In this document: positions 9,028 to 51,400 of the stretch, piece by piece
Position numbering within the stretch: position 1 is the stretch's first letter
Layout: every line of letters starts with the position of its first letter
Virus record (IMG/VR): IMGVR_UViG_2799112723_000003
Location: 1,425 to 65,424 of that record
Direction: 5' to 3' (one strand)
DNA length: 64,000 nt
Source of the DNA: a virus
Lineage: Duplodnaviria; Caudoviricetes
The notes under the pieces: generated by a model
The model's input: only the letters and a program-made list of their open reading frames with translations
Told to the model about the DNA's origin: nothing
The model's database searches: none
Translations under genes and position numbers: made by a program

Positions 9028-9285
9028 TTATTTCTCCTTATCTTTAAATACTACTACACTATCTACCGCTACACCATCTTTGTAGGTTATCTCAAGAGTA
9101 GTCTTCCCTTTATAAACATCCATTGCTGATGGTTTGTTTTCATCACTCAATTTAATTATTCCAGAAAGCAATAACATAAACCCAATTGAAACAAATAAAG
9201 TGGGTGTTGGATTTACATTAGAATAAATACCCTCTGCTACACCTAATATAATCAAAATGAGTCCAATTATAAGTAATATAACCAT
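9028..9285 (-). CDS. Small two-TM membrane protein
   Basis: Two hydrophobic helices; flanked by identical 18-bp junction repeats at 9022-9039 and 9282-9299. Confidence 0.6.
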   Translation of the reverse strand: MVILLIIGLILIILGVAEGIYSNVNPTPTLFVSIGFMLLLSGIIKLSDENKPSAMDVYKGKTTLEITYKDGVAVDSVVVFKDKEK

Positions 9286-11663: not shown

Positions 11664-12149
11664 CTACCCTTTCTTCACTATCTTCCTTAACTTCTCACGT
11701 TCACGCTCCAGCCGTTCCTTCTCGACCTCCACATGGGCTGAGGCTATTTGTGCCCGTGTATATGGGGTTGTCTTGCTGATATAGTCTCTCACACACTTCT
11801 TGAACTCTTCAAAGCTCCTGACTACGACATACTGATAAAGTGCCGACTCAAAAATCTTCTGGAAATCCTTCTGCTGCTGTGACTGCTTACCCTTGGCGGT
11901 CTTCATTTCTATGCCCAGCCCGTGATAAGCCGCCAAGCTCTGCAGGTATCCTTTATCGAATGCTGCCGGCATAAACAGCAGCAAGTCCGGCACACCGGCC
12001 ACCGTGCCTTCTCCTTTATGGATGGCTGCACTCACCCGGTTCCCGTTGCCCTCGTTGGCTACATGCGTCAGCAGCATGGCATATTGCGGGTACTGTGCCC
12101 GGAACCAGGCCACGCATTGTTTCTGTAGTTTACTCTCTTCGTGATTCAT
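11664..12149 (-). CDS. VRR-NUC domain nuclease (PD-(D/E)XK, resolvase-like)
   Basis: HVANEG, EGTVAGVPDL, GIEMKTAKGKQSQQQK, YVVVRS. Confidence 0.85.
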   Translation of the reverse strand: MNHEESKLQKQCVAWFRAQYPQYAMLLTHVANEGNGNRVSAAIHKGEGTVAGVPDLLLFMPAAFDKGYLQSLAAYHGLGIEMKTAKGKQSQQQKDFQKIFESALYQYVVVRSFEEFKKCVRDYISKTTPYTRAQIASAHVEVEKERLEREREKLRKIVKKG

Positions 12150-13477: not shown

Positions 13478-13699
13478 CTACTCGCAGTTATGCTCTACCC
13501 ACCAGTTGGCAATGTCACTCTCCGACGGCTCTTCACCGTTCTCCTTGGTCAGCAGGTTCTTCACGGAGTCGTATTCTTCCTGCGACATGCGTATGATCAC
13601 ATGCTCCGTGTAGTCAATATTGCCAGCCCACCCTACCAGCATCAGGCCGCAAATCATGATGCCCAGGGCCACCGCAAACTTCATTAAATCCTTTTTCAT
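13478..13699 (-). CDS. Small protein with N-terminal TM segment
   Basis: FAVALGIMICGLMLVGWAG hydrophobic stretch. Confidence 0.55.
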   Translation of the reverse strand: MKKDLMKFAVALGIMICGLMLVGWAGNIDYTEHVIIRMSQEEYDSVKNLLTKENGEEPSESDIANWWVEHNCE

Positions 13700-26725: not shown

Positions 26726-28543
26726 TTATGCGTTGCCGGTGTACTGCTTCCACTCGTTGTCATCTTCGCTCCACTGCCAAACCTTGTCGCCATCCAGCAC
26801 AGTGCCGGTGTACTCGGTCCAGGCGTTGTTGGTGAAGATGTAGTACTTGCCCTGCTCGTAGGTGACTGCCTCCTGACCTTCGCCGACGGTGATGTCCTCG
26901 GTTGGTGCAATGAGGTCACCGGCACTCGGATTTTCGGGCAGTGTGCTCACCTTCTCTACGGGACCGTCCTCACTCAGCAGACCGTCGAAGCTGATCAGCA
27001 TGCCGTCGGTAGGATTGCTGGGCAGTGCGTCTACCAGGTTCACAGGATTGCTGTTGTCTGACATGTTCTTCTCTACAATCTCGTCGCTTGGGCCTACCAG
27101 CACGCTGGTATGTCCGCCCAGCTTCAGGGCACCGCTCTCGATGTAGATGAAGCGGCTGGCCTCACGGGCTTCATTGCCGGCTTTCTTCAGGTCAATCTCG
27201 TAGGTCTTGGAGTTGCCGTTGATGTTGTGGTAGTACTTGGCCTTCTGCGTGGGGATAACCACCATGAAGTTTGAGTAGCCAAGGTCATCCAGGGCTGGAG
27301 CGTGTACAATGTGCAGCGTACCGAAGTTGCTTACCAGGTCGCGGACAATGATGCCGTAGTCGGTCTTGTGGTGCTTATACTCTACGGTGTGGTGCAGAAT
27401 TTCGGGCATGTTGTCCAGCTCGGCAATCTTGTTCATACCGCAATAGGCGTAGGCTTCTTTCGACTTGCCCAGTCCGGTGCCGATCACCTTGCCGATGGCT
27501 GAAATGTACTCCCACTTGAACTTGCCGTCCAGACCTAGCGTATTGGTCAGCTGGCGCAAAGCACCCTGCATGGTGTAGACAAACTCTTCGTTTCCGTCTT
27601 TCATGCGCATGATAAAGCGGCTCTGGGCCATAATCCACAGGCTGTACTCCTGCTTCTTCTTGAAGTTGCGAAGGGCCTGTGCCTTGATGTCGGTAAGTCC
27701 CCAGCTGGTCTTCTTGATAACTTCTCGCTCATGGTCGGTAATAAGGATATTGAACTCCATCTTCTGCAGATAGACGGTGTTCGGACGGGGCTGACTGTTG
27801 TCGGGCTGTACAATCATCTGGCTCTCGCTGGCTGCAACAGAGGTAATCACCATCTTGGTGCCTGCAGGAATGGCCGGGGCTGTGTACTCTCGCAGATAGT
27901 CGCTCTTCGTACCTTCGGTCTTGGTAATACCATTAATAGGACGGCAGGTAATCTTCTCTTCGTCGTTGGCTACTACAAACAGTACCAGCGGACCACCGTC
28001 TTTCTTGGTTTGGCTTCCATTCTCATAACCGCCTACTCCTGTTACTACAATGGTACTTGATACTCCCAGCATGTCCAGGTTACCGCTACAGTTGCTCTCT
28101 GTCAGTATGACTTTCTCACCGGCTGCAATATCGTCGGTAACTACAAGCGTCATGTCTTCCTCACCAATGCGGAAGTCGGTAATCTCGTAGTCATGGCCAC
28201 CGACGTTGCGCTGCATGGCAATGGTCTGGGCGTGGTTCAGCAGTACATAGTCATCGGCTTCAAACTCCACAATGTCGGGGTCGTACTGGTCTTCTACCAG
28301 CTTGGCACGGCGCAACTGGGTGGCTGATGCCTGCGTACCTGGCAGTGACTGACCGGCTCCTTTGCCGTCAGGACTCTTCATATCATTGGTATCAGGATTC
28401 ACCGGGTCAGGATTGGCCGGGTCTGGCTCAACCACTGCTGCATCGGCAAGGCACAGTCCTGTACCGCCTGTCAAAATAGCCATCATCAAAAGACACAAAC
28501 TGACAAATAGCCGTCGTGTAAAATTAAATTTGTTCTGTTTCAT
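26726..28543 (-). CDS. Major capsid protein with hydrophobic N-terminal leader and C-terminal extension
   Basis: Follows the scaffold gene; NTVYLQKME, ALRNFKKKQEYSLW, TMQGALRQ, FGTLHIVHAPALD segments fit an HK97-type capsid; leader residues 12-33 are hydrophobic. Confidence 0.75.
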   Translation of the reverse strand: MKQNKFNFTRRLFVSLCLLMMAILTGGTGLCLADAAVVEPDPANPDPVNPDTNDMKSPDGKGAGQSLPGTQASATQLRRAKLVEDQYDPDIVEFEADDYVLLNHAQTIAMQRNVGGHDYEITDFRIGEEDMTLVVTDDIAAGEKVILTESNCSGNLDMLGVSSTIVVTGVGGYENGSQTKKDGGPLVLFVVANDEEKITCRPINGITKTEGTKSDYLREYTAPAIPAGTKMVITSVAASESQMIVQPDNSQPRPNTVYLQKMEFNILITDHEREVIKKTSWGLTDIKAQALRNFKKKQEYSLWIMAQSRFIMRMKDGNEEFVYTMQGALRQLTNTLGLDGKFKWEYISAIGKVIGTGLGKSKEAYAYCGMNKIAELDNMPEILHHTVEYKHHKTDYGIIVRDLVSNFGTLHIVHAPALDDLGYSNFMVVIPTQKAKYYHNINGNSKTYEIDLKKAGNEAREASRFIYIESGALKLGGHTSVLVGPSDEIVEKNMSDNSNPVNLVDALPSNPTDGMLISFDGLLSEDGPVEKVSTLPENPSAGDLIAPTEDITVGEGQEAVTYEQGKYYIFTNNAWTEYTGTVLDGDKVWQWSEDDNEWKQYTGNA

Positions 28544-28576
28544 ACATTAATTGTTTTAAATGGGTTAATATTTTGT

Positions 28577-28741
28577 TTACCTTTTAGTCAGCCCACCGCG
28601 TCGTATCTGGGTTCCTGATGCCTGTGTACCTCTTAGTGACTGGCCTGCTCCGCGTCCGTCCGGACTGCGCATGTTGTTCACCGTGGGGTCTACGGGGTCT
28701 CTCTTCCTGGGACTGGGGTCTATGACGGGACTGTCTTTCAT
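28577..28741 (-). CDS. 54-aa mini-protein duplicating the capsid N-arm (not in ORF track)
   Basis: MKDSPVIDPSPRKRDPVDPTVNNMRSPDGRGAGQSLRGTQASGTQIRRGGLTKR*; 26/37 identities to capsid residues 46-82; ATG overlaps the scaffold TGA. Confidence 0.85.
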   Translation of the reverse strand: MKDSPVIDPSPRKRDPVDPTVNNMRSPDGRGAGQSLRGTQASGTQIRRGGLTKR

Positions 28742-29538
28742 ACGCCGTCCTCTCCCCAGTCGGCAAAACCGCCGCGTTTCTTGGGCTGGCGCTCACCGCG
28801 TCCTACGCCACCGCCTGACAGGCTGGGCACACCGCTGCCAAAGTTTCTCAGACCGTTCTGCATTCGCTCGTTCATGGCGGTAGCACGGGCTTTGTCGGCG
28901 GCTGATGCAATATCGCTGTCGTAGTTCTGGGCCTTCAGCACGGCTTCCCATACTTCCTTGGGCACAATTCCCATGGCGGCATTGCCGATGATGCCAGGGT
29001 CTGTCTGCTCGCCGTTCTCGTCGGTCTCGCCAAACAGTTTCTTCACCAGGGCTATCGCGTCTTCGTTGCTCAGGTTCTTCTCCTGCTGCAACTGCTTCAG
29101 GGCGTCAAAGCTCTGCTGCATGTTGGTACCGATCTCTTCCTTGCGCTTGGCGTCTGCGGCCAGACTCTCTTGGAACTTGCCCAGGGCGTCGCCCATCTGC
29201 TTGCCGAAGTCGGGGTTGTTGGCCAGCTCTCTGATGTCCATGTCGGGGCCGATGTTCTCTGCCAGATAGACAAAGGGGTTCTCACCTTCCTTGGCGGCAA
29301 GTACCAGCCCACCTAACAGCGGGGTCTTGTCCATGGCTTCGCCTAACTGACGGTTGCTCTCGCGGAAGTTCTCCAGCTCGTCCAGATTGCTGTTGGCTTG
29401 CTCGTAGAAAGCGTCTTCGTCATCCAGATTCATGTCGGGATGTGCGGCCTGGTAGCGGCTGCGATAACGCTCACGGGCTGTGGGCTGTTGACCTTCTGCT
29501 GCTTCCTGACCTTCTTTCTTTTTCGTATTCTCTGCCAT
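28738..29538 (-). CDS. Capsid scaffold-like protein
   Basis: Acidic and helical, basic C-terminus; upstream of the capsid gene; start MAENTKK. Confidence 0.65.
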   Translation of the reverse strand: MAENTKKKEGQEAAEGQQPTARERYRSRYQAAHPDMNLDDEDAFYEQANSNLDELENFRESNRQLGEAMDKTPLLGGLVLAAKEGENPFVYLAENIGPDMDIRELANNPDFGKQMGDALGKFQESLAADAKRKEEIGTNMQQSFDALKQLQQEKNLSNEDAIALVKKLFGETDENGEQTDPGIIGNAAMGIVPKEVWEAVLKAQNYDSDIASAADKARATAMNERMQNGLRNFGSGVPSLSGGGVGRGERQPKKRGGFADWGEDGV

Positions 29539-29567
29539 AAATTTGCGTGATTTAAAAATTTCCGCTG

Positions 29568-29679
29568 TAAAATTATAAATCATTCTTCCTGCTTTATTCA
29601 TAAAATTTCCCTTCATCAGACAGAAAGCACGCAGAGGAAAATTTTATGAAGAAACGTGCTTGCCTGCTTCCTAACTTTG
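29568..29679. promoter_or_regulatory. Divergent late promoters sharing an AAATTTTATGAA motif
   Basis: Plus: GGAAAATTTTATGAA (29636-29650)-N21-TAACTTTG. Minus: GGAAATTTTATGAA (29610-29597)-N21-TAATTTTA. Confidence 0.7.
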
Positions 29680-29696
29680 TAGGCAAAAAGAAGTAT

Positions 29697-31730
29697 ATGA
29701 CTAAGCCGTTATTGACTCTGAAGGATGTCACGCCACTGGCCAAAGACAATAGGTTTGACTCTGTAAAGAAACGACGTACCAACAACATACAGGATGCTGT
29801 CTACGACACTGACCTGCTGGGAGAGTGTGAGCGTTCATGGAACGGAAAGGATGCCATACGTCAGGAACGTGCCAGGGTGTTGCGTTATATCTTCGGCAAT
29901 CAGTGGGGCGATCAGGTGCCGGTGGATGGCTATGGTCTTATGTCTGAGGAAAAGCTCATCAGAATGCAGGGCAATACGCCGCTTCGCAACAATGTCATGC
30001 ACTCGCTATGGATGAGCGTCTACGGCATTCACGCCAAGACGGAAACGGAACCTGTATGCTATGCGCGTCATCAGAATGCCAAGGAGCTGTCGGACAATCT
30101 GTCTGCGGCCATACAGACCAACTGGCAGAACACCTACCAGTCGGAAAAGCTCGACAATGCCTTTGCAGAGTTCCTGGTGTCTTCACAGGCTTTCGCACGC
30201 GAAACCATGGAAGAGCGTCACGAACTGCTGGACTCCTATACGGACTTCCCCAATCCTTATTATGCGTTCTGGGAGGGCGGCAACGATGCCACGCATCAGG
30301 ACTTGCGTCTCATAGGTCTCCTGCATGACATCAGCCGCGAGGAACTGTACTTCCGCTTTGCCAAGCCGGAATATGGGCTGACCATCCAGAAGCTGGACGA
30401 AATCTACCACTTCAACGATGGCAACATACTGCACTATGCGGTAGCACAGCAGCCTCACAACGAGGTCAACGACTACCTCAACGTGTCTTTCTACAATCCG
30501 TCTGACCCTAGCCTGGTACGTGTCATTGAGGTGTGGCGCGAAGAGGTGAAGCCGCGTTATCAGTGCAAAGACCCGCTGGCGGCTAACCAGCTCGACCACA
30601 TGTTCCGATGTGAAAAGGAGGACTTGCCAAAGCTCCTGGAGATTAACCAGGAACGTAAGGCCATGTACGAGGCGCAGGGGGTTCCTCCTGAAGACAGGGC
30701 GTACATTACGGCTACGGAGATAGTCGACAAGTACTGGCAGTACTACTTCCTGGCTCCTGACGGACGGGTGCTCTGCGAGGGCGAAAGTCCCTACGACCAT
30801 AAGGAGCATCCCTTCACGGTGGCGCTGTTCCCGTACATCAATGGGGAGATTCATTCTTTCATGGGTATGTTCATCGACCAGCAGCGCTACATCAACCGCA
30901 CGGTCATGATGGGCGACATGGCCATGAAGAATGCGGCAAAGGGTATGACCTTCCTGCCGCTCAGCATGAAGCCGGACGATATGACCATCGATGAATATGC
31001 CAACCAGAAGACGCGATTCGACTCGGTGTTTGTCTATGACGACATGAAGCCGGAGGCGCTGAAGTCTCAGCGTAAGCCGGAGTTCTATACGCACTCGGCA
31101 TTCAACATCGGACAGACGGAGATGCTGCAACTACAGCTTAACATGATTCATGAGGTCAGCGGCGTTTCGGGGGCTTTGCAGGGTAAGACTCCGCAGTCTG
31201 GTACAAGCTATGCTCGCTATGCGCTGGAGTCGGAGAATGCCACTACGTCCATCTATCCGCTCATCAAGACCTTTAACGGTTTTGAAGAGCGTGTGGCCAT
31301 GAAGAAACTCATTACCATGCAGCAGTACTACGAGGACGGGCGTGACATCACTCCGCGCAAGTCGGAACAGCAGATCTTCTACAAGGCCAATGCCTGCCGC
31401 AACATCAAGAGCAATGTCAGCATCAAGAACTCTGCGGCATCGGCGGCGTTCCTGCAACTGGGCAACGAGATGCTGGACCGACTGCTACAACTGCAGGCCA
31501 TCGACGTACGGACATATCTGAAGAACTACGACAGTCCGTACTCGGAGAAACTGCTGCAGGACTACGACAACTACATGAACCAGCTGCAACAGGGCCAGCA
31601 ACCTGCCATGCCGCCACAGATTCCGGGGGCCGACCAGCAACAGGCGGCTGTCGCCTCTCAGCTCATGCAGGGTGGTGGTCAGCTCTTCACTCGTCAGAAA
31701 CCGGGCGCACCTCTCACGCCTGCCGCATAA
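29697..31730 (+). CDS. Portal protein (P22/podovirus-like)
   Basis: YIFGNQW..PLRNNVM..DQQRYINR..EVSGVSGALQG motifs; Gln-rich tail. Confidence 0.8.
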   Translation: MTKPLLTLKDVTPLAKDNRFDSVKKRRTNNIQDAVYDTDLLGECERSWNGKDAIRQERARVLRYIFGNQWGDQVPVDGYGLMSEEKLIRMQGNTPLRNNVMHSLWMSVYGIHAKTETEPVCYARHQNAKELSDNLSAAIQTNWQNTYQSEKLDNAFAEFLVSSQAFARETMEERHELLDSYTDFPNPYYAFWEGGNDATHQDLRLIGLLHDISREELYFRFAKPEYGLTIQKLDEIYHFNDGNILHYAVAQQPHNEVNDYLNVSFYNPSDPSLVRVIEVWREEVKPRYQCKDPLAANQLDHMFRCEKEDLPKLLEINQERKAMYEAQGVPPEDRAYITATEIVDKYWQYYFLAPDGRVLCEGESPYDHKEHPFTVALFPYINGEIHSFMGMFIDQQRYINRTVMMGDMAMKNAAKGMTFLPLSMKPDDMTIDEYANQKTRFDSVFVYDDMKPEALKSQRKPEFYTHSAFNIGQTEMLQLQLNMIHEVSGVSGALQGKTPQSGTSYARYALESENATTSIYPLIKTFNGFEERVAMKKLITMQQYYEDGRDITPRKSEQQIFYKANACRNIKSNVSIKNSAASAAFLQLGNEMLDRLLQLQAIDVRTYLKNYDSPYSEKLLQDYDNYMNQLQQGQQPAMPPQIPGADQQQAAVASQLMQGGGQLFTRQKPGAPLTPAA

Positions 31731-31753
31731 GTACACACTAAAAACAGGTAATA

Positions 31754-32215
31754 ATGAACATCACACTGACATCTGCCGACATAGCCGCAACGGTCAAGCG
31801 CTCGCTTTCCATCATTGGCAAGCGTGCCAGGGACGACAACGGCAACCTCTTGTTCCAGGACATCAGCATTGGTTCCAGGGAAGAGGCCATCCTGGATGAC
31901 TTCTTCAGTCAGGCTGTTATCGAGCTGGCTACTGAGACTGCTGCATTTATAACGGACAGTACGGAGAGTAGCATCACACTGACTTTCCCGGAAAACCATA
32001 ACGTAAAACTCGACACCTTCATACAGAAGTCATGCGTCAACTACTGTGTGTCTTATGCGCTGTATTCATGGTTCACAATCACTGCGCCACAACTGTCAAA
32101 GAAGTACCAGGAAGACTGCAACAGCAACGTGGCAAGCATCATCAGGCTCATCAACGACAAGAAGGCTCCTGAAAGTACGCTCGACATACTATCCACATCG
32201 ACAAGTATAACATAA
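31754..32215 (+). CDS. Neck/ring protein paralogue 1
   Basis: Downstream of portal; CVNYCVSYALYSWF motif shared with the next genes. Confidence 0.55.
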   Translation: MNITLTSADIAATVKRSLSIIGKRARDDNGNLLFQDISIGSREEAILDDFFSQAVIELATETAAFITDSTESSITLTFPENHNVKLDTFIQKSCVNYCVSYALYSWFTITAPQLSKKYQEDCNSNVASIIRLINDKKAPESTLDILSTSTSIT

Positions 32216-32226
32216 ATATTAAGTAT

Positions 32227-32757
32227 ATGGCAAAGACTATCACGCTTAATCTCCAGAAAGACCTCATCTTGGAGGCTGTCAAGGCTGAAACCTACGACAC
32301 AGGACGTATCGTCAAGTCGAACGACCCTGTAAAAAATGCATCTACCGTTCTTGTTGAACAGGCAGGAGGTGAACAACATCAGGAGAGACAGATGCTTAGG
32401 TCGCTCAAACAGGCCGTCGGCGCTTTTGAAGCTAAGATGGTGGAGTTCCTGGATGCCGGTAGCGGAAACATCAACAATACCTTGACTGCTAATCAGAGTG
32501 CATTTACCATTACAATGGTTGTCAGTGACCGCTACAACAATGGACTGGCTAATCCGATGTCTTCTCTTTGCGAGGATTATCTTATCAACAAGATGATGTA
32601 TTCGTGGTGGGTTTCCCGTGACCAGAAGTTTGCCAATCAGTTTGCGATAAGTGCCCAGGACTCTATTGACAACATACGGCTCTGCCTGGCTAAGTCGGCC
32701 CCTACGGCTTCTTCGTCAAACTATACGGACGTCACAGGAAACGTAACTCAATCATAA
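32227..32757 (+). CDS. Neck/ring protein paralogue 2
   Basis: DRYNNG..CEDYLINKMMYSWW. Confidence 0.55.
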   Translation: MAKTITLNLQKDLILEAVKAETYDTGRIVKSNDPVKNASTVLVEQAGGEQHQERQMLRSLKQAVGAFEAKMVEFLDAGSGNINNTLTANQSAFTITMVVSDRYNNGLANPMSSLCEDYLINKMMYSWWVSRDQKFANQFAISAQDSIDNIRLCLAKSAPTASSSNYTDVTGNVTQS

Positions 32758-32761
32758 CACT

Positions 32762-33610
32762 ATGGCAAAGGAAATCAAAATAACGCTTATACAGTCGCTC
32801 ATCGTCAACTCGGTCAAGAACGAGACTTACCGGCGGGGGCAGGTGTTCAAAGCTGCCGACGAAAAGCGGACGGCAATGGCATTCCACGACCAGGCGGGTG
32901 ATGACGCTTATCATGAGGCCATCATCGGACGGGCTATGTTCACGCAGGCTGAAATGCTCAAAACGTGGTTCTCGGAATATCTCTCCGGCTCTGGATTCCT
33001 GGCTGAAGACCCGCTCATCTCTCAGGATGAGGAAAACGGTACTATCGAGATTTCCCTGAAGGTGTCTGACCGATTCAACAATGGCTACGTCAAGACGCTG
33101 GCACGACTGGGACAGAAGTATGTCGAAGACCGTATCATCTATCTTTGGTGGGCTACTACCGACAAGGAACTGGCGGCTATCTATTCACAACTGGCAGAGG
33201 AAGACTTGGTGGGCATACGGCGCTGTTTCAGCAAGACGGCTCCAAATGCGCCTGCCTACAATTTCCCGACGGCCATCGAACTGCGCTACCCCATCATCCC
33301 GGAGCGCAATCAGACACCGGGATATATCACGCCTGGCAACAGTGCCGTCATCCAGCCTATCCAGCTCTTCAACAATCCCTGGATCATCGGACGGGGTGAA
33401 GAGTCGGAAATATCCTATACGCTGACCGGCGAAGGTGGCAAGAAACCTATCGACGACGTCATTGTACGCTGTGACGACGGATGCTGTGAGCCTTTCATGC
33501 ACGGTGGCAACTGGTGCCTGCGGGGCATCTGCAAGGGTATCACCATCGTCACACTCTTCTCACGACATAACGACCAGGTGTTTGCAAAATTCGCCATCCG
33601 CATCGTCTAA
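32762..33610 (+). CDS. Neck/ring protein paralogue 3 with C-terminal beta domain
   Basis: DRFNNG..GQKYVEDRIIYLWW..CFSKTAP. Confidence 0.55.
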   Translation: MAKEIKITLIQSLIVNSVKNETYRRGQVFKAADEKRTAMAFHDQAGDDAYHEAIIGRAMFTQAEMLKTWFSEYLSGSGFLAEDPLISQDEENGTIEISLKVSDRFNNGYVKTLARLGQKYVEDRIIYLWWATTDKELAAIYSQLAEEDLVGIRRCFSKTAPNAPAYNFPTAIELRYPIIPERNQTPGYITPGNSAVIQPIQLFNNPWIIGRGEESEISYTLTGEGGKKPIDDVIVRCDDGCCEPFMHGGNWCLRGICKGITIVTLFSRHNDQVFAKFAIRIV

Positions 33611-33645
33611 CGTCCTACATCTTACTTCTAACATCTTACATCTAC

Positions 33646-34212
33646 ATGTATCCTCATCACCTACATACTCCAGACCGTCCTTTACCAGCCACCGTTCCTG
33701 CTGGTTCTCCAGCAGGCAAACAACTGGTAGAGGTCATCCTCTTGCATGAGGAACTGACACACGACATCGAGGCTGACATACGGCGCATCGAGAAGGCACG
33801 CAAGCTGGAAGAGTCGCCCATACTGGCTGACAATGGTTCGGACGATTACTCGCTGTGTCGCCTCATCGACCAGGCTGTCAATCATGTGGTCGCTCGCTGC
33901 AGGGCTTATCTCCTGCTGCCGTCTCCATTCGTACGGCGTATCTCCACCAATCACGCCCACAACTGGGAAGAGAAGAATATCCTCCTGGCGCTGCCGCACA
34001 ACTGGGCACCGCACAACATCGACCCGCTGCGGGATGCCGTACACAACTATATCGTAAAGAATGTGGAGTACCAGCTGCTGGCACAGACGCTGCCACAGGA
34101 TGCTACGACCATGCTCTGTCAGCAACAGGCCACCGACAGCTACAACGAAATCAATGCGCTCATCAACAGCCGACTGGGTGGTGTCCGTACACACCCTACC
34201 ATCTTCGGCTAA
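33646..34212 (+). CDS. Neck/ring protein paralogue 4
   Basis: LIDQAVNHV..AVHNYIVKNVEYQLL; start uncertain. Confidence 0.5.
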   Translation: MYPHHLHTPDRPLPATVPAGSPAGKQLVEVILLHEELTHDIEADIRRIEKARKLEESPILADNGSDDYSLCRLIDQAVNHVVARCRAYLLLPSPFVRRISTNHAHNWEEKNILLALPHNWAPHNIDPLRDAVHNYIVKNVEYQLLAQTLPQDATTMLCQQQATDSYNEINALINSRLGGVRTHPTIFG

Positions 34213-34249
34213 CTAATATAATTAAGGTATAACTATCTATATAAGGTAT

Positions 34250-34558
34250 ATGCCAGGAAAAGCAGGCCGGCCACCCGGAGCCAAGAACAAGGTAGGAGCT
34301 GATGAAAAGGAGTTCATCAAAGGTCTACTCGGCGAAACTCAGGAACAGTTTCGCAAGGAGTTCATGCGCCTGGCTGATAGCGTCAACAAGGAAAACCCAA
34401 CCATCCAGGACAAACTGGACAGCCGGCGCTTCATGGAGATACGCAACGACCTTGCAAAGATGGTGGTGCCTAAGCCTGTAGAAATCGACGCCAGCATATC
34501 ATCGTCTGACTTCGAGACGCTGATGGGCCTGTGTTCCAAGTGGTCTGACGAAAAATAA
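34250..34558 (+). CDS. terS: Terminase small subunit-like protein
   Basis: GRPPGAKNK N-terminus, helical core, VVPKP C-terminus; adjacent to TerL. Confidence 0.6.
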   Translation: MPGKAGRPPGAKNKVGADEKEFIKGLLGETQEQFRKEFMRLADSVNKENPTIQDKLDSRRFMEIRNDLAKMVVPKPVEIDASISSSDFETLMGLCSKWSDEK

Positions 34559-34560
34559 TC

Positions 34561-36723
34561 TTACAGGTCTGCTTCCGTACCGGCCTTGACCATGGTTCCC
34601 CTCCTGCTCTTGGTAGCTCTCCATGTCGGCAATGGCATCTTCTGACTGACATACAGTCCTATGCCGGTACTCATCACTATGTCATCGTGGTTGTTCTTGC
34701 CCTTCACGTTGCCCAGCTTGCCGTCTTCGTCGCGCTCGTATATCAGCATCTCGTCAAAGGCTTGCTTGTCGGGTTCGTTGTACAGCATGTCTTCCACGTA
34801 GGCGACGAAGTTGTCAATGACATACTCTTTTGTCTGCACGTTGGTATGGAAACCGTAGATGTTGGTGACTTTCTTCGTCACCTGGTCTACACTGGTCTCA
34901 CGGATATACATATTGGGATAGTAGTCGGCTATCTCGTCTATGATGGTGCCTGAGTGATCGCCCTCGGTCTCTACCAGGTCTTTCTTCGTGTCTGCCGTGT
35001 TCTTCTCTATCACCAGCAGGGCATCGTCGTAGTAGTGGGCCAGCTGGGCGGCTTTCCAGGCCAGCAGGTCAAAGCGGATATGCCCACGCCACCTAGCCAC
35101 CACTTCGGGCTTGCCGCCAAGCATCATCGGGAAACGGTCTATCACCGTCATCACCGTGAAGTCGGAGTTACGGCCCTTGCCGCCAATATCCACGCTGACC
35201 ACATAGCGGTAGTTCACTTGCAGACAGTCGGGCTTGTGCCAGATGCGTAATATCTGACCGTCATCCACCCGGTCTGTCAGGTGGGCGGTGCTGATGGCTT
35301 CGTGGCCTTTCTCTTCGTCACCGACAATGTTGCCCACAAACACGGGTTCTTTCTGCATCGTCTGGCGCATGGCATCTACACTGTACTTGTCAAACACCAG
35401 GTTGCCTGCTGCCATGAAGCACTCCACATCGTCACAGGGGAATTCGGTGGCAAAGTAGGAGTGTGTCCTGAACTCGTTGCGCTTCTCCCTGTACCAGTTG
35501 ATGGCTTCAAAACTGGCTCCCTTCATCCACTGGCTCCAGAAGAACTTGCCGCTTTCCCGGTAGCCCTTGGGGTTGTTGGGATTGTCCTTGTTCTCCAGCA
35601 ACCACTTGGCAAAATCCCTGGCGGCTGTCTTGTATTCGGCTGATCGCCGGCTGTCTCTCCAGTGCTGGCCGTTCACCAGCTCCATCCTGTACAGCTCAAT
35701 CATGAAGTAGGTGATGAACAGCGGTTCCCAGGCACTGGGTATGTCGGGATTCTTGGCTTCCTGGTACATGTCGTAGAAGAAGTCGCCCACCACACGCCCG
35801 GACGATTCCATCACGATCATGGTGTCGGGCTTGTTGCCGATGGTTCCGTTTAGTGAGGACAGCACGCCTTCGGGCTTCTTCTGCTCGGTTTCTTTCCAAT
35901 AGGCGACCTCTGACAGGTGGGCTATCTTCAGGTTGGCGCTTCGGCTGGCGTCGTAGTTCTCATAGCTGGCTACTGAGGTCACGTTGCCTCTCACCTCTTC
36001 GCCTATATTGGTCTTGACAATGAAGTCGGTCTGGCTGCCCAAGAAGGGGGCCGACTTCAGTCGCCTGCCCATCAGACCCACACTCCACCCGGGCTGATGT
36101 TCCAGGGCAAGGTCGTACATGGCACGGATACGGATAGATGCTGCCGTCTGGTGGGCCATAATGGCCATGTTCCAGCGGGTATGCTTGAAGTCCTGTATCC
36201 ACTTGCCGTACAGCTGGGTCTCGGTGCTACCACCAAACTGACGGGCCTTGGGCATGATGATACGGATGGGTTTCTTCTCGCGCCTCATCTTTTCCTGAAG
36301 TTCCAGCAACTTGCGCTGTGGATAGTTCAGCACAAAGGGTACGACGGTTCCTTCTTCCTTGTCTACTATCTTGTAGATGACGGCAAACACAAAGGCGGGG
36401 TCTTCTTCTCCCCTGATACGGAACAGCATATACACCACCTGCTGGTAGTGCTCGTCGGTATATTCCCACCCTATGACGTCGGTAATGTATGTCTTGATGC
36501 TGCCGGCCTTTAGCACCTTCTTCAGTTCGATGTTGTGCTTCACACAGCGTTCGGGCATGTACTGGACTGGTATCGGACAGTCGGGTATCTTCACTTTCAC
36601 GCGAGGGCCTGGTGCTCCACGGCCCGTAACAGGATTGAAGCCCTCGAACATCTCCACGTTCCTGCGCTCGTTCTCCTGCAGCATCTCGGCTATCAGCCGT
36701 TCCTCATCCTTTCCATCTGCCAT
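34561..36723 (-). CDS. terL: Terminase large subunit
   Basis: Walker A PKARQFGGST, Walker B HLSEVAYW, MESS, RNase H-like VDIGG and NHDDIVM. Confidence 0.92.
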   Translation of the reverse strand: MADGKDEERLIAEMLQENERRNVEMFEGFNPVTGRGAPGPRVKVKIPDCPIPVQYMPERCVKHNIELKKVLKAGSIKTYITDVIGWEYTDEHYQQVVYMLFRIRGEEDPAFVFAVIYKIVDKEEGTVVPFVLNYPQRKLLELQEKMRREKKPIRIIMPKARQFGGSTETQLYGKWIQDFKHTRWNMAIMAHQTAASIRIRAMYDLALEHQPGWSVGLMGRRLKSAPFLGSQTDFIVKTNIGEEVRGNVTSVASYENYDASRSANLKIAHLSEVAYWKETEQKKPEGVLSSLNGTIGNKPDTMIVMESSGRVVGDFFYDMYQEAKNPDIPSAWEPLFITYFMIELYRMELVNGQHWRDSRRSAEYKTAARDFAKWLLENKDNPNNPKGYRESGKFFWSQWMKGASFEAINWYREKRNEFRTHSYFATEFPCDDVECFMAAGNLVFDKYSVDAMRQTMQKEPVFVGNIVGDEEKGHEAISTAHLTDRVDDGQILRIWHKPDCLQVNYRYVVSVDIGGKGRNSDFTVMTVIDRFPMMLGGKPEVVARWRGHIRFDLLAWKAAQLAHYYDDALLVIEKNTADTKKDLVETEGDHSGTIIDEIADYYPNMYIRETSVDQVTKKVTNIYGFHTNVQTKEYVIDNFVAYVEDMLYNEPDKQAFDEMLIYERDEDGKLGNVKGKNNHDDIVMSTGIGLYVSQKMPLPTWRATKSRRGTMVKAGTEADL

Positions 36724-37213
36724 AGGCCAGTCCTACAAGCACGCAATACAAGTGAATACACCAGTTGATATGTGGGACAAAGGCAAACGCCAGCACCCAA
36801 GGCATGACTCTGATACAAAACCTCCAGTATGTTGTCGCGGCACGACAACCTGCCTCTGTCTTCTTCCTGCACCACACGCCCCACCTGATGCCGATCTCGG
36901 CAAACAGCACGCCGGAGAATCCCACCGTCATGCCCATTTCCCAGAATCCGAACACGGGCAACAGCGAGCATGCTACGGCTATCGCATAGTCTTGCCACAG
37001 CCGTAACCGCCCGGGTATGCACCATAGCACAAACACGTTACCGGCCAGATGCCACACGTTACCGTGACTCAACGGGTACAAAAGGTGCCCTAACACCGTC
37101 CCGTGTGCCAAGGTTTCCCCTTGGCTTCCACCGTACCCAATCACAGGCAGCAACAGCCACCAGCACAACAGCAACAGCGACAATGCCAACTTCTCAATTC
37201 TTGATTTCTCCAT
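36704..37213 (-). CDS. Rhomboid-family intramembrane serine protease
   Basis: HGNVWHLAGN (HxxxxHxxxN), GFSG catalytic Ser, C-terminal HLYC His; multiple TM helices; start MEKSR. Confidence 0.85.
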   Translation of the reverse strand: MEKSRIEKLALSLLLLCWWLLLPVIGYGGSQGETLAHGTVLGHLLYPLSHGNVWHLAGNVFVLWCIPGRLRLWQDYAIAVACSLLPVFGFWEMGMTVGFSGVLFAEIGIRWGVWCRKKTEAGCRAATTYWRFCIRVMPWVLAFAFVPHINWCIHLYCVLVGLAYGRWKG

Positions 37214-37634
37214 ACATCTTCTGGTCTCGTTGTCTTTTCTTGGCCGTACGCTCACGCCATATCTGACCCATACGCTCCTTGCTGATGAAAAACCTCGACG
37301 CTGGCTCCTGGACGGCAAACCGGAGCACATAGCTCAGGCTCTTGCCCCAATACTTTTCTTCCTGATAGAGACGCTGCACCACGGCAAACAGCTCTTCATA
37401 CATCTGACGCGTCAGCGGATTCATCTTCTTCAGGGCGTTGTGGTCACCACGGCACAAGGGCGCAATGCGCTGGCTGGCCCAGCGGGAATCGACGTAGAAC
37501 CGCGGGGCCTCATGCATGACGGCCTGCTCGTAGGCTTCTTCCTGGTGTCTGCAACAGTATTGGGAACTGACCTCGCGGTACACACGCATCAGGTCGTCTT
37601 TCATCTGCTCTTTCAGTATCGTGCTCTGCTTCAT
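37194..37634 (-). CDS. Basic helical protein, candidate late transcription activator
   Basis: Duplicated (A/S)PRF(Y/F) motif (EAPRFYVD, PASRFFIS), basic C-terminus; the function is inference only. Confidence 0.55.
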   Translation of the reverse strand: MKQSTILKEQMKDDLMRVYREVSSQYCCRHQEEAYEQAVMHEAPRFYVDSRWASQRIAPLCRGDHNALKKMNPLTRQMYEELFAVVQRLYQEEKYWGKSLSYVLRFAVQEPASRFFISKERMGQIWRERTAKKRQRDQKMYGEIKN

Positions 37635-45469: not shown

Positions 45470-48400
45470 TCACTGCTTACTGTCAGGCTTCTTGTTAAGC
45501 TCCAGCCTCTCAATCATAGCCTTTCTTGCTGCACGGATACCTTCCATGACGTATTTGTCACCTTTGCCGCCAAAAAGGGACACTACGTTGCTGTGGACAC
45601 TCTTACGCTGATTGCTGATGGCTTTTGCTTGCTGCTCATTACCTTCTTCGTCTAACTTTTGCTGATAAGCCAATAGCAGCGCATCCTCATAGACATCTTC
45701 GCCCGTTCGCAACTCCTGGTAAAGCCTTTGATGGTCATTCTTCGGCTTGTCGCCATAGGGAGTCTCGCTGGCTCCTGCCTCCTTGGAGATACGCAGTGCT
45801 ATTGCCTTGCGCTTCTCCGCGTCTTCGGTGGCGTCAAATTTTCCAATGGCCAGCTCCAGCGGGTCTTTGCCGCTTTCAAGGGCTGCAATCTCGTCAAGAA
45901 GGTCATTCTTATACATTGATATGCTGGACTTGATATTGGCAAGCGTGTCTTTGTCGGTGGCTTCCTTCTGCTGCTTACGCAGGTTGTCTATCAGCTTCTT
46001 GTACTGGCTGATGACAAGACTTTGCTGATACTCGTCGGATGCCATCAGCTTCTCGAGCTTCTTCTGGGCCTCAGCATCTCCAGCCTTTGCACGCTTCTTC
46101 TTCTTCCTGACGGTATTCAGGAACTCTTCGTTGTCGTTAATCATCTGCCAGTAGTCCTCACCGAGTGCCCCGCTGTTGTCGCGCTCCCACGGGCTGTTGA
46201 CAAATCTGTTCAGGACAGGTATCTGATAGGCATTGGGGGCTTCCTGCCTGGCAACTGTCACGACAACGTCAGCCGACTTGGCAATGGTGTTGTACATACC
46301 GCCCAGATAGCCTTGCAGCAGATGGTTCCACACAGCAGGGTTGTTCAGGTATTGTCCTGCGGCGGTCTTGTCCAGCCATCCGCGACTGTCCTCGTCGCCG
46401 CCTGCAGCCAAGTTGATACCTTCTGACACCTTTGTCATCCATTTGGGAGTACTGGCGTATGCCTTGGTGAACATCGGGTCGTACTTGTTACCCATATTAT
46501 CCTTCCAGATAGGCTTGCCAGTAAAATCGGTGTTGAACGCCACCTGAAGGATGGGCTGTGTGGTGGTGGGCAGGAAGTTGATGACAAGGTTGCCACCGTT
46601 ACCCGTCGGGTTGATGGGAACAAGGTCGGCCACGCTCTCGAGTATTTCCACACCCGTATTCTGATGGGGATGCTCCATGACACCACTTGAAATCATCTCA
46701 CCGACACCATAGAAGACACGGAACTCCTGCGCCAGCGGCATGGTGAAGAAATACTTGGTGCCCGGCACCCAGAATACCAGGTTGTTCTTTCGTACCCAGG
46801 GGGGCAGGTTCCAGTAGGCATCCTTGTCGTCATCGTCACCAAACATATTCAGCAGCCATTGGTTTAAAACAGGCATAAACACACCCATCAGCATGAAGCC
46901 TGCGGCCACACCGCCAAGCTTCAGCGGATGCTTTTTTGCCATACGGTACATATTGGCAAGTGCCTGGATGGCGGGGTTTACGAAGATGTATAGGTCTCTC
47001 AGCTCAGCATTACCCTTTGCTCCCGTTCCCTTACGGTTGAAGTTCAAGGTCACGTCCTTGGCATCTGCAATGGATTCTTCCAATGTCTTACCCATCTGGC
47101 GGCTGGTCATATAAACCATGAAGCGGGTGGCATCCTCTGCACATCGGTTATAGAACTCAAAGGTCTCTCCCAACAGCCTGAACGCCTTGCCGATACTGGT
47201 CTCTTTCACCTTGGCTTTGCTGCCGAATAGTGTAGAGCCGTTCATCTGGCTTATTTCCTTCTGCATCTTCTCCTTGAAGGAGTCGATGGACAGCATGTTC
47301 ACAAAACCAGTCTCGCCGCCTTCGTCCATGAACTCCTTGAACAGTCGCTCAGTCTCATTGCCCGTGTCCAGTTTCCCTTGCTGCCATTTGCGCATCAGGC
47401 TGGGTATTAACCCTGTAGGTTGCTTCGATGCAGGCATCCAACGGCTGCTTTCGCCCAACCTTGGCGTCAACACCTTTGCAATGTTCTTCAGAAACCTTGC
47501 ATTATACGCTGCATTTTCGTTGACAGCCACACTGGCCATGGCCATGTTAAGGTCTCGGCTCAGGTTGGAAATGACAAATGCCGGGTTCTTGGAGGTAAAG
47601 AATGCTGCCATGCTGCGGTTGAGCTCGGCAATCCTTTTACCCCATGTTGTGTCGCTGATACGGCTGACGGCTCTTGCTGCACTGCCGTTCAATGCTTGTG
47701 CGGCCTTGGGATTGCCGTTGATGTACAACTGATAGGTGCGTCCGGCACGCTGCACCTCTACCACATGTTCTGCCTTTTGGCCCTGGGTGGCATTGACATC
47801 TAGTCTTAGCCGGCCTCTCACAGGGATGGCCTTGCCTTCGTTCTGCTTCAGGCGCATCTCTTCGTTGAAGTCACTCACTATCTGGGCTATCTCGTCAGGG
47901 TCTTTGCCTGCTGTGTCAGCAGAACGGAGCACCCATACGGGATGATCGTCTTCTGTACCGATGTTCTCATACCACGATTCACTGATGCTCACCAGACTGG
48001 TAGGATTGTTCATCACATAGTTCAGGAAGTGCTGCTTCATCATGTTACGGTGTCCTGACAGGATGGTACTCACGGCAATATTGCCTATATAGGCCAGCGG
48101 GTCTTCGGCCTTGGAGGTTCGGCCCCAGGTCTTCTTGACGGCTGGAGAAAAGACATTCTCCCTACCCATATAGGTGTAAACGTCTGATGCCTTGTTTTCA
48201 TCCCATCCTCTCAAAGGCAGATAGAAATCAAACATCTTACGTACCTTGTTATAGGTATTACGGTCCATCAGACCACTTTCGTAACTGTGCTTCAGCGTCT
48301 CTTCGGTGGCAGCATTGATACGCTTCCAAAGTTCTGTATGATGACGTAGCACGTCATCACTCTCTGCATCAAACACGCGTTTCTCGGCTTCTTCTCTCGC

Positions 48401-51400
48401 TTGCTCATACGCCTGCTTCATCATGGCATCGTATTCACCCCACAACTCGCGGCGTTCCTGCGGGTCAATAGTCCGCTGGGCTTCCTTCTTGATCTGCTGG
48501 GCGGCATCATACATTTCCTTGTTGAAGGTCTCTGTAAGTCCGGAATAGTCCTTCAGGTATTCATCGTACTTGCCGTCGGTCTCTCTTCTGATGATGTCTT
48601 CTATACGAGTCGTATACTCGTTGTAGCTGATGTCGCCCTTGGCATAGTCTTCTTTGGCTTGCAGATAGTCATCACTGCCTCGCACCTCCTGCATGCGGTC
48701 ATCGACACCGGTCTGCTCCAGCAGGTCTATATCGGCTTTCTTGGATTTATACTCTTTCTCGTCGATACGGTTCTTGGAGTAGTCTTTCTCCAGCTTCTCC
48801 CGCATATCCTTGATGTCTTCTGCCAGCTTGGACTTGACAGCATCACGGAAAGCATAGTACACGTTACGCTCCAGGCCGCTCTTGGCTATCAGGTAGTCCA
48901 TACCTTGCTCATGCGTCAGTTCTTTTGCCTTGCAGAAGTCGTTGAACGCTTTCAGCATGGGGCGGTAATACTGCCAGTCATAGCGTTCTGCCATATTCTT
49001 GGCACGTCCGTGCATACGGTTCTCGAAACGGTAGGCATCCTCTGCACCAGTGGCGGCATTGCCCGTCTCTTTGGCTATGGCATCCTGAATGGCTTTCAGA
49101 CTGGCCATAGAGTCCTGCCATGCTTCCTGCCATTTCAAGCTGCCCTGAGCCACGGCCTTCTCATAAATCTGCCTTGCCATATCCACCGGCACTTCCTCCG
49201 GCTCACCCATGGACTGCCCACGCCTGTACTCTTCAAGACGCTCCGCAAAGTCCATGGCATTCTCGCCAGGCTGGTAGTGCGGACGCTCTGGACTGCCAGT
49301 GCGCTGGAACCTGATATCAGGATTCTCAGGATTGTAGTCACCATTATTCTCAGTGGCACTCTTTACCTGGTTAGGCTCAAAAGCAATAATGGTTTCTGTG
49401 GTTCTGCCAAGACTGCCTTCATCCCTGGCTATCCATATACCATCGTATTCGCTGTTCTTGAAATAATCGTCAACCAGCTCCTTCATTTTGGCAATAGGCT
49501 TGCTCTGAGCCTCTTTCCACTGGTCAACTACATCTTCTGCAGTATCCGATATGGCATTCTGATACTCTTCTTCGGTAATCTCTCCGGCTTTCCACTTATT
49601 CCAGTTTTCGACATCGCGCTCATGGTCAAACTTCATGGCCTCATCGAATTTCTTGGAATATTCCCGGTCTATCTTCTCATACTCTGCAAGAGCCTCCTTG
49701 TATCCTTCAACCTTTGATTGCAGCAGACGGGACAGCTCCTGTCTGTTGGCAACTCTCAAAGGCTTGCGGATATTGGCATACAGGGCCATCTGCTTCGCAC
49801 CGCCAACACCTATGTCTCGCGCTGAAGGTTTCATGAAGATACCGAAAGGCAGCTGATAGTCATTGGTTCCTGCTCCTTTGTGTCTTGGGTCAAACACGGT
49901 AAAGTCGTTGGCTGTCTGGTGATAGACCACCATCGGCTCACCTTCCCTGTCAACTATCTTGGAAGCATTATCGGGATCCTTCTCCCAGTCACCGAAGAAA
50001 TTCTTGAAGTTATCGGAGTGTGTATCACCCTCAACTTTCTGGAATTTTAATGAATTATTCTCATTTTCTTTGCCATTAATGATTACCTGGTCCTCGCGGG
50101 GCACATCCTCGGTCTTTGCGGCTGGATTGTTACGACGCTCCTGCTCGCTCATACCCATACGCTCAGTAACGTTACGGGCCTCCATCTCACCTGCAAGACT
50201 CCGATAAAGGTCACTGGCATCACTCTTGGCAACAGTCTTCAGCTTATAGATGCGGTCTATCTGAGCTGTCAGGTTGTCGTACTTGGCTGCAAGTTCATCA
50301 AGACGATTATTAAGACTTTCTTTAAAGTCCTTAACGGTACGGCCCTCCAACTCGGCATAATCTTTCAACTCGTCTCCAGAGTTAAGTATCTTCTGGTTCA
50401 TCTCGATTTCCTTCATCACGCGCTTGCGCTCGGCCTCCTTCTTATTCATGATGGCCTCCATACCTGCCTCAGTGGTAGCTGTACTCAGGCTGCCACCCTG
50501 GGCAAAACCTTCCTTTTCCTGAATGACATGCTGCACCTCATGCAGCAAGATACCATAGACATTCTCGTTATCCAGCTTCTTGTCACCAAATCGACTGGTC
50601 TCGTTGGCATTCAGCTCAATGGTCTTACCATCGGTACTGCCAGCAATGCCACTCTCAACAGTCGGGTCGAACATCACCTGTACGTTCCTCATCTGGGGAT
50701 AATACTTAAACAGCTCGTTATCCTTACCAAGAAGTTCCTGAAGCTTCAGGATGGGCATAGGGTTCTCTACACCTTCATCTTTCATCTCCTGCAGCTTCTT
50801 CTCATAAGGCGTAAGCACGTCAACATCGGCATCAACGGTTTCGTATCGCCACTTGCCGTCCTTGCCGCGCTCCCAGCCTGTAGCCAATTTGATAGCACGG
50901 ATATCCTTCCCGGCTTTCTCCATCTCTTCAGCCACCTTCATATTGTCCTGGCGCATGGTAGTACCCTCTGCCTCATCAGCCTTCTCTGCACCCTTTCTGC
51001 CTACTAGCTGGTATTTGGGTGCATCGCCCAGTGGCTTGATACCTTCATCAAAGTAGCGGTCTATGTCAGCCAGTACGCGGTTGGGCTTAGCACCATCATA
51101 TTCTACATAGTGGTCGCTGTCCCAACCATCACCAAAGTCAACCTGTACATAACCGTCATTATGTGCTATAAGTTGTCGCAAGGCTTTCTTCTGCTCGTTG
51201 GTGGGCTTCACGGAAAGATTAATAGCTCCGGCATTGTCGTCAATACGGATAGCGCCTCGACGGATAAAGTCGGGCATATCTGTCTCAATGCCTGTCTTGG
51301 TATTGCCATCTCTTTCATAAGCAATGGATTCTACCTCTCTATGGTCTGTAGAGCGTCTGCCTCTTAGGAAACTAGTGTCAGAGCCCGGATTCATCAGATG

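Follow-up and report, generated by a model that had tools for sequence, protein, structure and literature searches.

Two features of one prophage locus raise the question of whether the shell protein of a tailed phage can be made as a membrane-targeted precursor, and whether a rhomboid protease encoded in the same head module acts on its leader. To our knowledge, tailed-phage shell proteins are regarded as soluble proteins of the cytoplasm, and their maturation, where it occurs, as the work of soluble prohead proteases. The stretch of DNA analyzed here (hereafter, the window) comprises 64,000 nucleotides and covers almost all of a 65,424-bp IMG/VR provirus record (IMGVR_UViG_2799112723_000003) that is rated 95% complete. 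A first-pass annotation of the window had paired a leader-bearing major capsid protein (MCP) with a rhomboid in the region 26726–37213, and had proposed that the rhomboid may be the maturation protease of a membrane-tethered capsid precursor. We find that the pairing of leader and rhomboid is real, widespread, and evolutionarily coupled, and that the joint loss of the two points to a putative, so far undescribed membrane step in tailed-phage head building.

The open reading frame (ORF) at 26726–28543 (−) encodes a protein of 605 residues that matches the Pfam profile SU10_MCP (PF17236, E = 1.2e-8) and has at least 153 homologues. Its AlphaFold2 (AF2) model is of moderate quality overall (mean pLDDT 66.9), though its core is confident, and the top Foldseek matches of this model are all phage MCPs or encapsulins of the HK97 fold, led by Vibrio phage VP1 (9in6, E = 6.7e-15) and followed by crAss001, P1, SU10, and HK97. 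On the strength of this profile match and predicted structure, we assign the ORF as an HK97-fold, SU10-type MCP precursor. Upstream of the folded core, the model shows a helix at residues 2–24 and disorder at residues 26–127 (pLDDT < 50). The corresponding sequence consists of a leader (residues 1–33, 28445–28543, −), followed by a flexible, acidic, Pro/Asn/Gly-rich linker (residues ~34–127, 28163–28444, −) that contains a conserved GAGQSLPGTQASATQLRR motif. The leader comprises the n-region MKQNKFNFTRR, a 13-residue h-region, and the c-region TGGTGLCLA, such that the N-terminus reads MKQNKFNFTRR-LFVSLCLLMMAIL-TGGTGLCLA/DAAVVEPDPANPDPVNPD, with the cut predicted after the final Ala of a small-x-Ala site and DAAVVEPDP as the residues right after it.

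This tripartite organization, in which −3 and −1 are occupied by small uncharged residues (C-L-A/D in the window), is that of a Sec-type leader with a site for signal peptidase I (SPase I). Bacteroidota SPase I substrates usually also carry Gln at +1, the so-called Q-rule (quoted in PMC10367356), and the MCPs depart from it: the window MCP has Asp at this position, and its relatives have A, T, G, V, D, or E for the most part, besides I and N. The n-region carries a charge of +4 and the C-terminal flank one of about −7, and the positive-inside rule thus predicts an N-in/C-out orientation; the concern, already voiced in the first-pass annotation, that this rule would place the capsid on the outer face is therefore a real one. 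Rhomboid substrates, in turn, need a small P1 residue together with helix-destabilizing residues (Strisovsky 2009; Urban and Freeman 2003). The leader offers both, in the form of TGGTG and of L-C-L-A/D, where P4 is hydrophobic and P1 is Ala.

The same layout, of ~12 basic or polar, 13 very hydrophobic, and 9 further residues, recurs in essentially all 120 close homologues (99–43% identity), where the h-region is exactly 13 residues long with a mean Kyte-Doolittle value of ~3.0, and the c-region follows the pattern T/S-G-G-x-G-x-x-x-A ahead of an acidic, Pro-rich sequence. A profile search of 1.8 billion representative proteins returned 458 members of the MCP family; of 127 representatives of this wider family that are full-length, 107 carry the leader, out to E = 1e-18, and it is still found in homologues at <30% identity. 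Its end converges across the family on (G/D)-x-x-(F/V/A)-A-M-A/, with Ala at −1 in ~95% of representatives, A, G, T, or S at −3, and a helix breaker or Asp at about −7, as located by a site finder that is crude and partly circular. Since the residues of the leader vary while its hydrophobic pattern is constant, the leader is translated and under selection. The leader-bearing N-terminus described in the first-pass annotation is thereby borne out, both in the sequence itself and by the conservation that was expected of it.

The leader could instead be an artefact of annotation, with translation starting downstream. Met at −2 relative to the cut is encoded by ATG in ~70% of relatives, and gene callers sometimes chose this ATG as the start (as in the homologue P0191). 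However, the corresponding codon in the window is CTT (Leu), Met20/21 is not conserved in homologues, and Met55 is Leu or Arg in them, so that an internal start is not a general explanation, and the leader layout is conserved at the protein level over hundreds of sequences. We therefore regard this explanation as effectively refuted, and the starts at Met20/21 or Met55 that the first-pass annotation had named as fatal to its proposal fall with it.

The putative partner of the leader is a minimal rhomboid intramembrane serine protease, 169 residues long from Met40 (36704–37213, −), whose gene overlaps the start of the large terminase gene (terL) by 20 nt. An ATG further upstream, at 37330, opens the full ORF (36704–37330), and Met40, at 37213, is the probable start. 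It matches the Pfam family Rhomboid (PF01694, MEROPS S54) with E = 7e-9 and 36.4–36.7 bits, compared to a cut-off of 22.6, and carries the HxxxxHxxxN motif in transmembrane segment (TM) 2, GxSG in TM4, and the His of TM6. None of the residues concerned (H50, H55, N59, G98-x-S100-G101, and H154) varies among 24 phage homologues (29–83% identity), which indicates a catalytically intact enzyme. Six hydrophobic segments can be read from the sequence, with positive charges at the N-terminus, in the TM2–3 and TM4–5 loops, and at the C-terminus, a pattern that suggests the usual GlpG topology with an active site toward the periplasm. The rhomboids of relatives occupy the same slot, between terL and the gene of a conserved protein here called p140. 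An intact rhomboid coupled directly upstream of terL, as first described, is thus what the locus contains. We note that on the contig of one leader-bearing relative (P0348; L311:7582–8100, −) the rhomboid is split into two adjacent ORFs, each with a match to the rhomboid profile (E = 2.6e-10 and 2.5e-6), which is either a frameshift en route to loss or an assembly error.

If the rhomboid and the leader are connected, they should be found together across related phages, as the first-pass annotation had also expected. We counted whole IMG/VR records that carry a rhomboid, with the group of 460-residue MCPs (A4) left out of the locus scan as too divergent in alignment. Among the leader-bearing clades, the rhomboid is found in 79 of 82 virus records: 14 of 15 in the window clade (13 by Pfam and a divergent rhomboid, in L016, that Pfam missed), where the sole record without it is a 10-kb fragment; 42 of 43 in group B, a deep second leader-bearing group (41 by Pfam and one by our own profile); and 23 of 24 in the leader-bearing sister group of clade D. 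Clade D itself is leaderless, with a stop codon right upstream of the Met and no hydrophobic N-terminus at all 80 of its 80 loci, and none of its 37 records carries a rhomboid, including the 17 that are at least 90% complete. Correspondingly, the gap between terL and the p140 gene spans ~100 nt in the leaderless phages, compared to 450–500 nt in their leader-bearing sisters, where it holds the rhomboid. In the reverse search, a rhomboid profile retrieved 30 IMG/VR loci; an MCP lies within 10 kb in 17 of them, and each of these 17 MCPs bears the leader (one is cut by the edge of its locus, and its record was already known to be leader-bearing). That a rhomboid implies a leader therefore held in these samples without exception, while the converse, that a leader implies a rhomboid, held for most lineages only.

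Several apparent cases of leaderless MCPs were set aside. P0191, P0205, P0216, and P0297 look like mis-called or truncated starts (P0191 alone was checked on DNA), and P0210 is an isolated MCP remnant amid bacterial genes. Single-protein scans with the leaderless P0186 and P0284 gave no match in IMG/VR, and a clade D profile matched only distant family members in 301 Bacteroidales genomes.

Besides clade D, the leaderless P0186 (L297) has a stop codon 39 nt upstream of its start, and in its locus terL is followed directly by p134, with the rhomboid absent from its slot; its leader-bearing sister P0189 (L298) shows terL, a 159-residue rhomboid, and then p141. The P0284 clade (L307, L308) lacks both leader and rhomboid, whereas its sister P0335 (L310) has the rhomboid, and in the leaderless P0350 (L309) terL adjoins p130. 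On a tree of 34 MCPs for which both states are known, the leader requires four changes, three of which are forced by well-supported branches, and all three to four independent contrasts agree in direction. Leader and rhomboid have thus been lost together three to four independent times. Furthermore, the leaderless proteins start at Met(−2) or at +1 of the cut motif of their own sisters (MAVD compared to AMA/VD, MADATT compared to FA/ADAA, and METV compared to LMA/EATV), so that the losses were deletions in place rather than swaps of one ancestral module. A protein that starts just after the leader is evidently a working capsid protein, and the leader therefore behaves as a removable pre-sequence. 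As a cause of the co-losses, we also considered a switch of host phylum and rejected it, on the weak evidence that Shine-Dalgarno-like motifs are equally rare (7–16%) in all groups. The repeated co-loss is best read as a functional tie, and a functional link between rhomboid and leader is likely from these comparisons.

Taking these observations into account, we tentatively propose, at somewhat less than an even chance, that the rhomboid, from within the head module, deals with the Sec-type leader of the MCP, most likely by cutting it. In the window prophage, as in a large radiation of podovirus-like phages of Bacteroidales, the MCP would be made as a pre-protein, whose ~33-residue leader would bring it to, and presumably insert into, the cytoplasmic membrane. 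The leader would enter the membrane or translocon as a loop, with only the start of the ~90-residue acidic linker reaching the periplasmic face, where the phage mini-rhomboid, rather than SPase I, would cut the helix at its small-x-Ala end or close by, leaving the mature MCP free to assemble. As only the flexible linker would be exposed to the periplasm, the folded capsid body would never cross the membrane and assembly would stay cytoplasmic. Two features would favor the rhomboid as the cutter, namely that it appears to be dedicated, being in the head module and lost with the leader, and that the leader combines small, helix-breaking residues with Ala at P1. The invariance of its catalytic residues and the lack of matches to conventional prohead proteases (see below) also speak for the proposal. 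The fuller version of this proposal, in which the HK97-fold capsid of gut-abundant Bacteroidales phages derives from a membrane-anchored precursor that is released by a viral rhomboid, is a possibility to which we give somewhat less credence. The idea of a rhomboid maturation protease that was put forward in the first-pass annotation is thus partly supported: the co-losses and the reverse search speak for the functional tie, and direct cleavage by the rhomboid is a hypothesis.

A number of observations weigh against this proposal. The predicted cut motif is a textbook site for the host SPase I. Classical rhomboid substrates are N-out, whereas the leader is predicted to be N-in, and so differs from substrates of the Spitz and TatA type; its N-in/C-out orientation would, in addition, put the capsid body in the periplasm. 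A sign test on the three to four contrasts gives p = 0.25, which is nonsignificant because there are too few contrast pairs. One phage, L255 (IMGVR_UViG_3300045988_175236, sister of L276), whose 59-kb genome is complete and has direct terminal repeats, still makes a leader-bearing MCP while its terL abuts p141, and no rhomboid was found anywhere in its record, making it, on the face of its sequence, a natural "rhomboid knockout". Similarly, a prophage MCP clade ("E"), present in 11 of 301 sampled Bacteroidales genomes, bears a leader (for example, MKKIFEFIKNNQVWVLLALIAITVIVAFLSADSSCILAA/VIP), and no phage-type rhomboid was detected in these 11 genomes with Pfam and our own profile, a detection that is imperfect, as a whole-genome search with this profile missed one rhomboid that a local search had seen. 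In one clade E prophage, terL lies at one end beside host genes and the scaffold and MCP genes lie at the other; a second one gave no match to terL or portal. Finally, the host genomes encode one or more rhomboids themselves. Relatives that bear the leader and lack the rhomboid, which the first-pass annotation had singled out as counting against its idea, are nearly absent from the window's own radiation, but do exist in L255 and clade E.

These exceptions, together with a c-region that is a textbook SPase I site family-wide, are what would be expected if host SPase I cuts the A-x-A site and the rhomboid serves a second purpose that depends on the leader, for instance removing tens of thousands of very hydrophobic leader peptides from the membrane or freeing precursors that are stuck in the translocon. 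Such a division of labor would still explain why every rhomboid came with a leader in our samples. However, the clearing of signal peptides is generally known for SppA and RseP, and not for rhomboids, and the full SPase I route would export the body of a terminase-packaged capsid to the periplasm. The residue at +1 is, moreover, Asp, Glu, Ala, or Val, and not the Gln of the Q-rule (PMC10367356), and we consider this explanation doubtful, if still worth serious attention. It is also conceivable that the rhomboid acts on another target altogether, such as a holin or lysis protein or a host membrane protein, and tracks the leader through shared ancestry or a common dependence. The window does encode small membrane proteins, namely an 85-residue, holin-like protein with two TM segments (9028–9285, −), a 73-residue protein with an N-terminal TM segment (13478–13699, −), and a lipoprotein-like ORF (547–1041, +), which are possible lysis genes and alternative rhomboid substrates; the low statistical power of the contrasts and the existence of the leader without the rhomboid point the same way. 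Each of the three to four co-losses, however, amounts to two separate lesions between which p140 and the scaffold gene were kept, the rhomboid sits in the head module and not in a lysis module, and the leaderless clades show no sign of a switch of host phylum, all of which makes a different target improbable.

The remaining explanation, in which the hydrophobic N-terminus never enters the membrane, and is an internal assembly propeptide resembling a delta domain or simply stays in the virion, seems to us less probable again. It has a precedent in the SignalP-positive MCPs of Porphyromonas gingivalis phages, for which cleavage by prohead proteases was assumed (PMC10367356), and the long disordered linker is propeptide-like. 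Against it, searches of the entire 65.4-kb record with Peptidase_S78, S77, CLP_protease, and S49 profiles gave nothing at E ≤ 1, and no prohead or other protease besides the rhomboid was found among the 30 ORFs scanned against Pfam, 10 of them, from the head region, also against PHROGs, in keeping with the first-pass annotation, which had recognized no conventional prohead protease gene. A membrane-embedded rhomboid would, in addition, be unable to reach a propeptide inside a procapsid, and a basic n-region followed by an h-region with a Kyte-Doolittle value of ~3.0 would, from general knowledge, be captured by the signal recognition particle (SRP) and Sec. The link to the rhomboid would also be left unexplained.

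If the proposed cleavage of the leader by the rhomboid is correct, the assembly of tailed-phage heads would include an additional step at the membrane, with rhomboids acting as capsid maturation proteases and a membrane checkpoint that is obligatory in head morphogenesis. Bacterial-type rhomboids would gain a natural and abundant substrate, which this enzyme family has long been missing, and there would be a topological puzzle to solve, in that a protein with an N-in signal ends up in a cytoplasmic capsid. The phages concerned are common in human gut and rumen samples.

No close relatives of the window MCP or rhomboid were found in INPHARED. Three distant cultured relatives, BS-TP4 (PQ571277), BF1-TP2 (PQ571263), and BKO1-TP3 (PQ571269), were reached only through other family members and the portal. 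BS-TP4 and BF1-TP2 carry portal, terL, a rhomboid annotated as such in GenBank, p140, scaffold, and a leader-bearing MCP, and all three phages, BKO1-TP3 included, match by MCP and portal. Within the family, the MCPs of these cultured phages fall into the deep second half, at 32–35% identity to its representative P0231, and their hosts are Bacteroides and not Prevotella. With three relatives in culture, the question becomes directly testable. The paper that describes the cultured Bacteroides temperate phages names neither the rhomboid nor the leader (PMC12694917), and our search of the accessible literature for a phage rhomboid or a rhomboid-linked capsid signal peptide returned nothing beyond a passing remark in PMC10367356. 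Beside the portal gene, BS-TP4 encodes a 73-residue protein, gp5 (L305:5489–5710), which GenBank names "Sec translocon accessory complex subunit YajC"; despite its apparent relevance to Sec, it has no hydrophobic segment, and the annotation looks spurious.

The nearest integrated relatives of the window provirus lie in metagenome-assembled genomes of Prevotella and Prevotellaceae. By synteny across related loci, the family module runs terL(−), rhomboid(−), p140(−) / scaffold(+), MCP(+). In the window, a scaffold-like protein of 292 residues (28738–29616, −; phrog_22323) is encoded directly upstream of the capsid gene, and a homologue precedes the MCP gene in every related locus examined. A P22-type portal protein (29646–31730, +; Pfam P22_portal, E = 6e-26; phrog_156) follows, and terL (34561–36723, −) encodes a protein of 720 residues with matches to terminase PHROGs that is 34–44% identical to the ORFs taken, by this homology, as terL in all related loci. 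The conserved 146-residue p140 (37194–37634, −; phrog_27246) always adjoins the rhomboid slot and is kept in leader-bearing and leaderless relatives alike; it and its homologues contain two copies of an A-P-(R/S)-F-(Y/F)-(I/V/L) motif. A relic ORF of 54 codons (28577–28741, −) lies in the spacer that separates the scaffold gene from the capsid gene. It is a leaderless copy of the capsid linker with the translation MKDSPVIDPSPRKRDPVDPTVNNMRSPDGRGAGQSLRGTQASGTQIRRGGLTKR*, which is homologous to capsid residues ~38–82 in a diverged form and is shared by the nearest relative, L002. This ORF is probably a recombination scar at the 5′ end of the capsid gene. Elsewhere in the window, an ORF of 4870 residues (45470–60082, −) resembles a giant gene in the related contig L309 whose annotated domains are ddrB-ParB, MuF_C, ART-PolyVal, and LPD; the giant gp3 of BS-TP4 is comparable. 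An ORF at 1163–1750 (−) contains a crAss001_48-related domain (E = 2e-14), which links the gene pool of this phage to crAss-like phages, and one at 11664–12149 (−) shows a VRR-NUC nuclease domain at 23.1 bits, slightly below the Pfam cut-off of 23.8 bits.

Among the closest known systems is HK97, in which the delta domain of gp5 is removed by the gp4 protease (S78), with equivalents in T4 and lambda. There, as here, an N-terminal MCP propeptide is paired with a phage protease of the head module. However, the proteases of HK97, T4, and lambda are soluble enzymes that work within the procapsid, whereas their families are unmatched here and the propeptide is signal-peptide-like. In filamentous M13/Ff phages, the leader of procoat directs insertion into the inner membrane and is cut by the host leader peptidase. 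As is predicted here, a viral major coat protein thus has a cleavable Sec-type leader and a membrane-bound precursor. The M13 coat protein is, however, a helix of 50 residues that is assembled at the membrane as the phage is extruded, compared to the HK97-fold shell of a tailed, terminase-packaged phage, and it is here the phage that encodes an intramembrane protease. Closer to the hosts in question, the MCPs of "Nixviridae" prophages of P. gingivalis were noted in passing to be SignalP-positive and were assumed to be cleaved by prohead proteases (Matrishin et al. 2023, PMC10367356). They share with the window a Bacteroidota MCP with a predicted signal peptide, and differ in that prohead proteases are encoded and no rhomboid was reported, in a study that made no analysis of leader–rhomboid co-occurrence (PMC10367356).

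Within the rhomboid superfamily, rhombosortase and GlyGly-CTERM also couple a rhomboid-family enzyme genetically to a membrane-anchor signal, and were likewise recognized by phylogenetic co-occurrence. That signal is C-terminal (Gly-Gly, a TM segment, and a basic tail) and is found on secreted bacterial enzymes, in contrast to the N-terminal leader of a capsid protein described here; as read from its sequence, the C-terminus of the window MCP has no hydrophobic segment, and thus no signal of the GlyGly-CTERM type. The comparison with AarA and its substrate TatA in Providencia stuartii (PMC3712462) extends to the enzyme itself, which is a bacterial-type rhomboid with the same catalytic motifs and, as predicted here from its hydrophobic segments, six helices (with Escherichia coli GlpG as the structural reference), and to the outcome, in that removal of a short N-terminal segment beside a membrane helix activates the protein, as is proposed here for the MCP. 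The two differ in topology, as TatA is N-out with an uncharged N-tail (PMC3712462) and the capsid leader is predicted to be N-in, and also in that the enzyme described here is phage-encoded and smaller (~160–180 residues), with a 605-residue viral capsid protein as its putative substrate.

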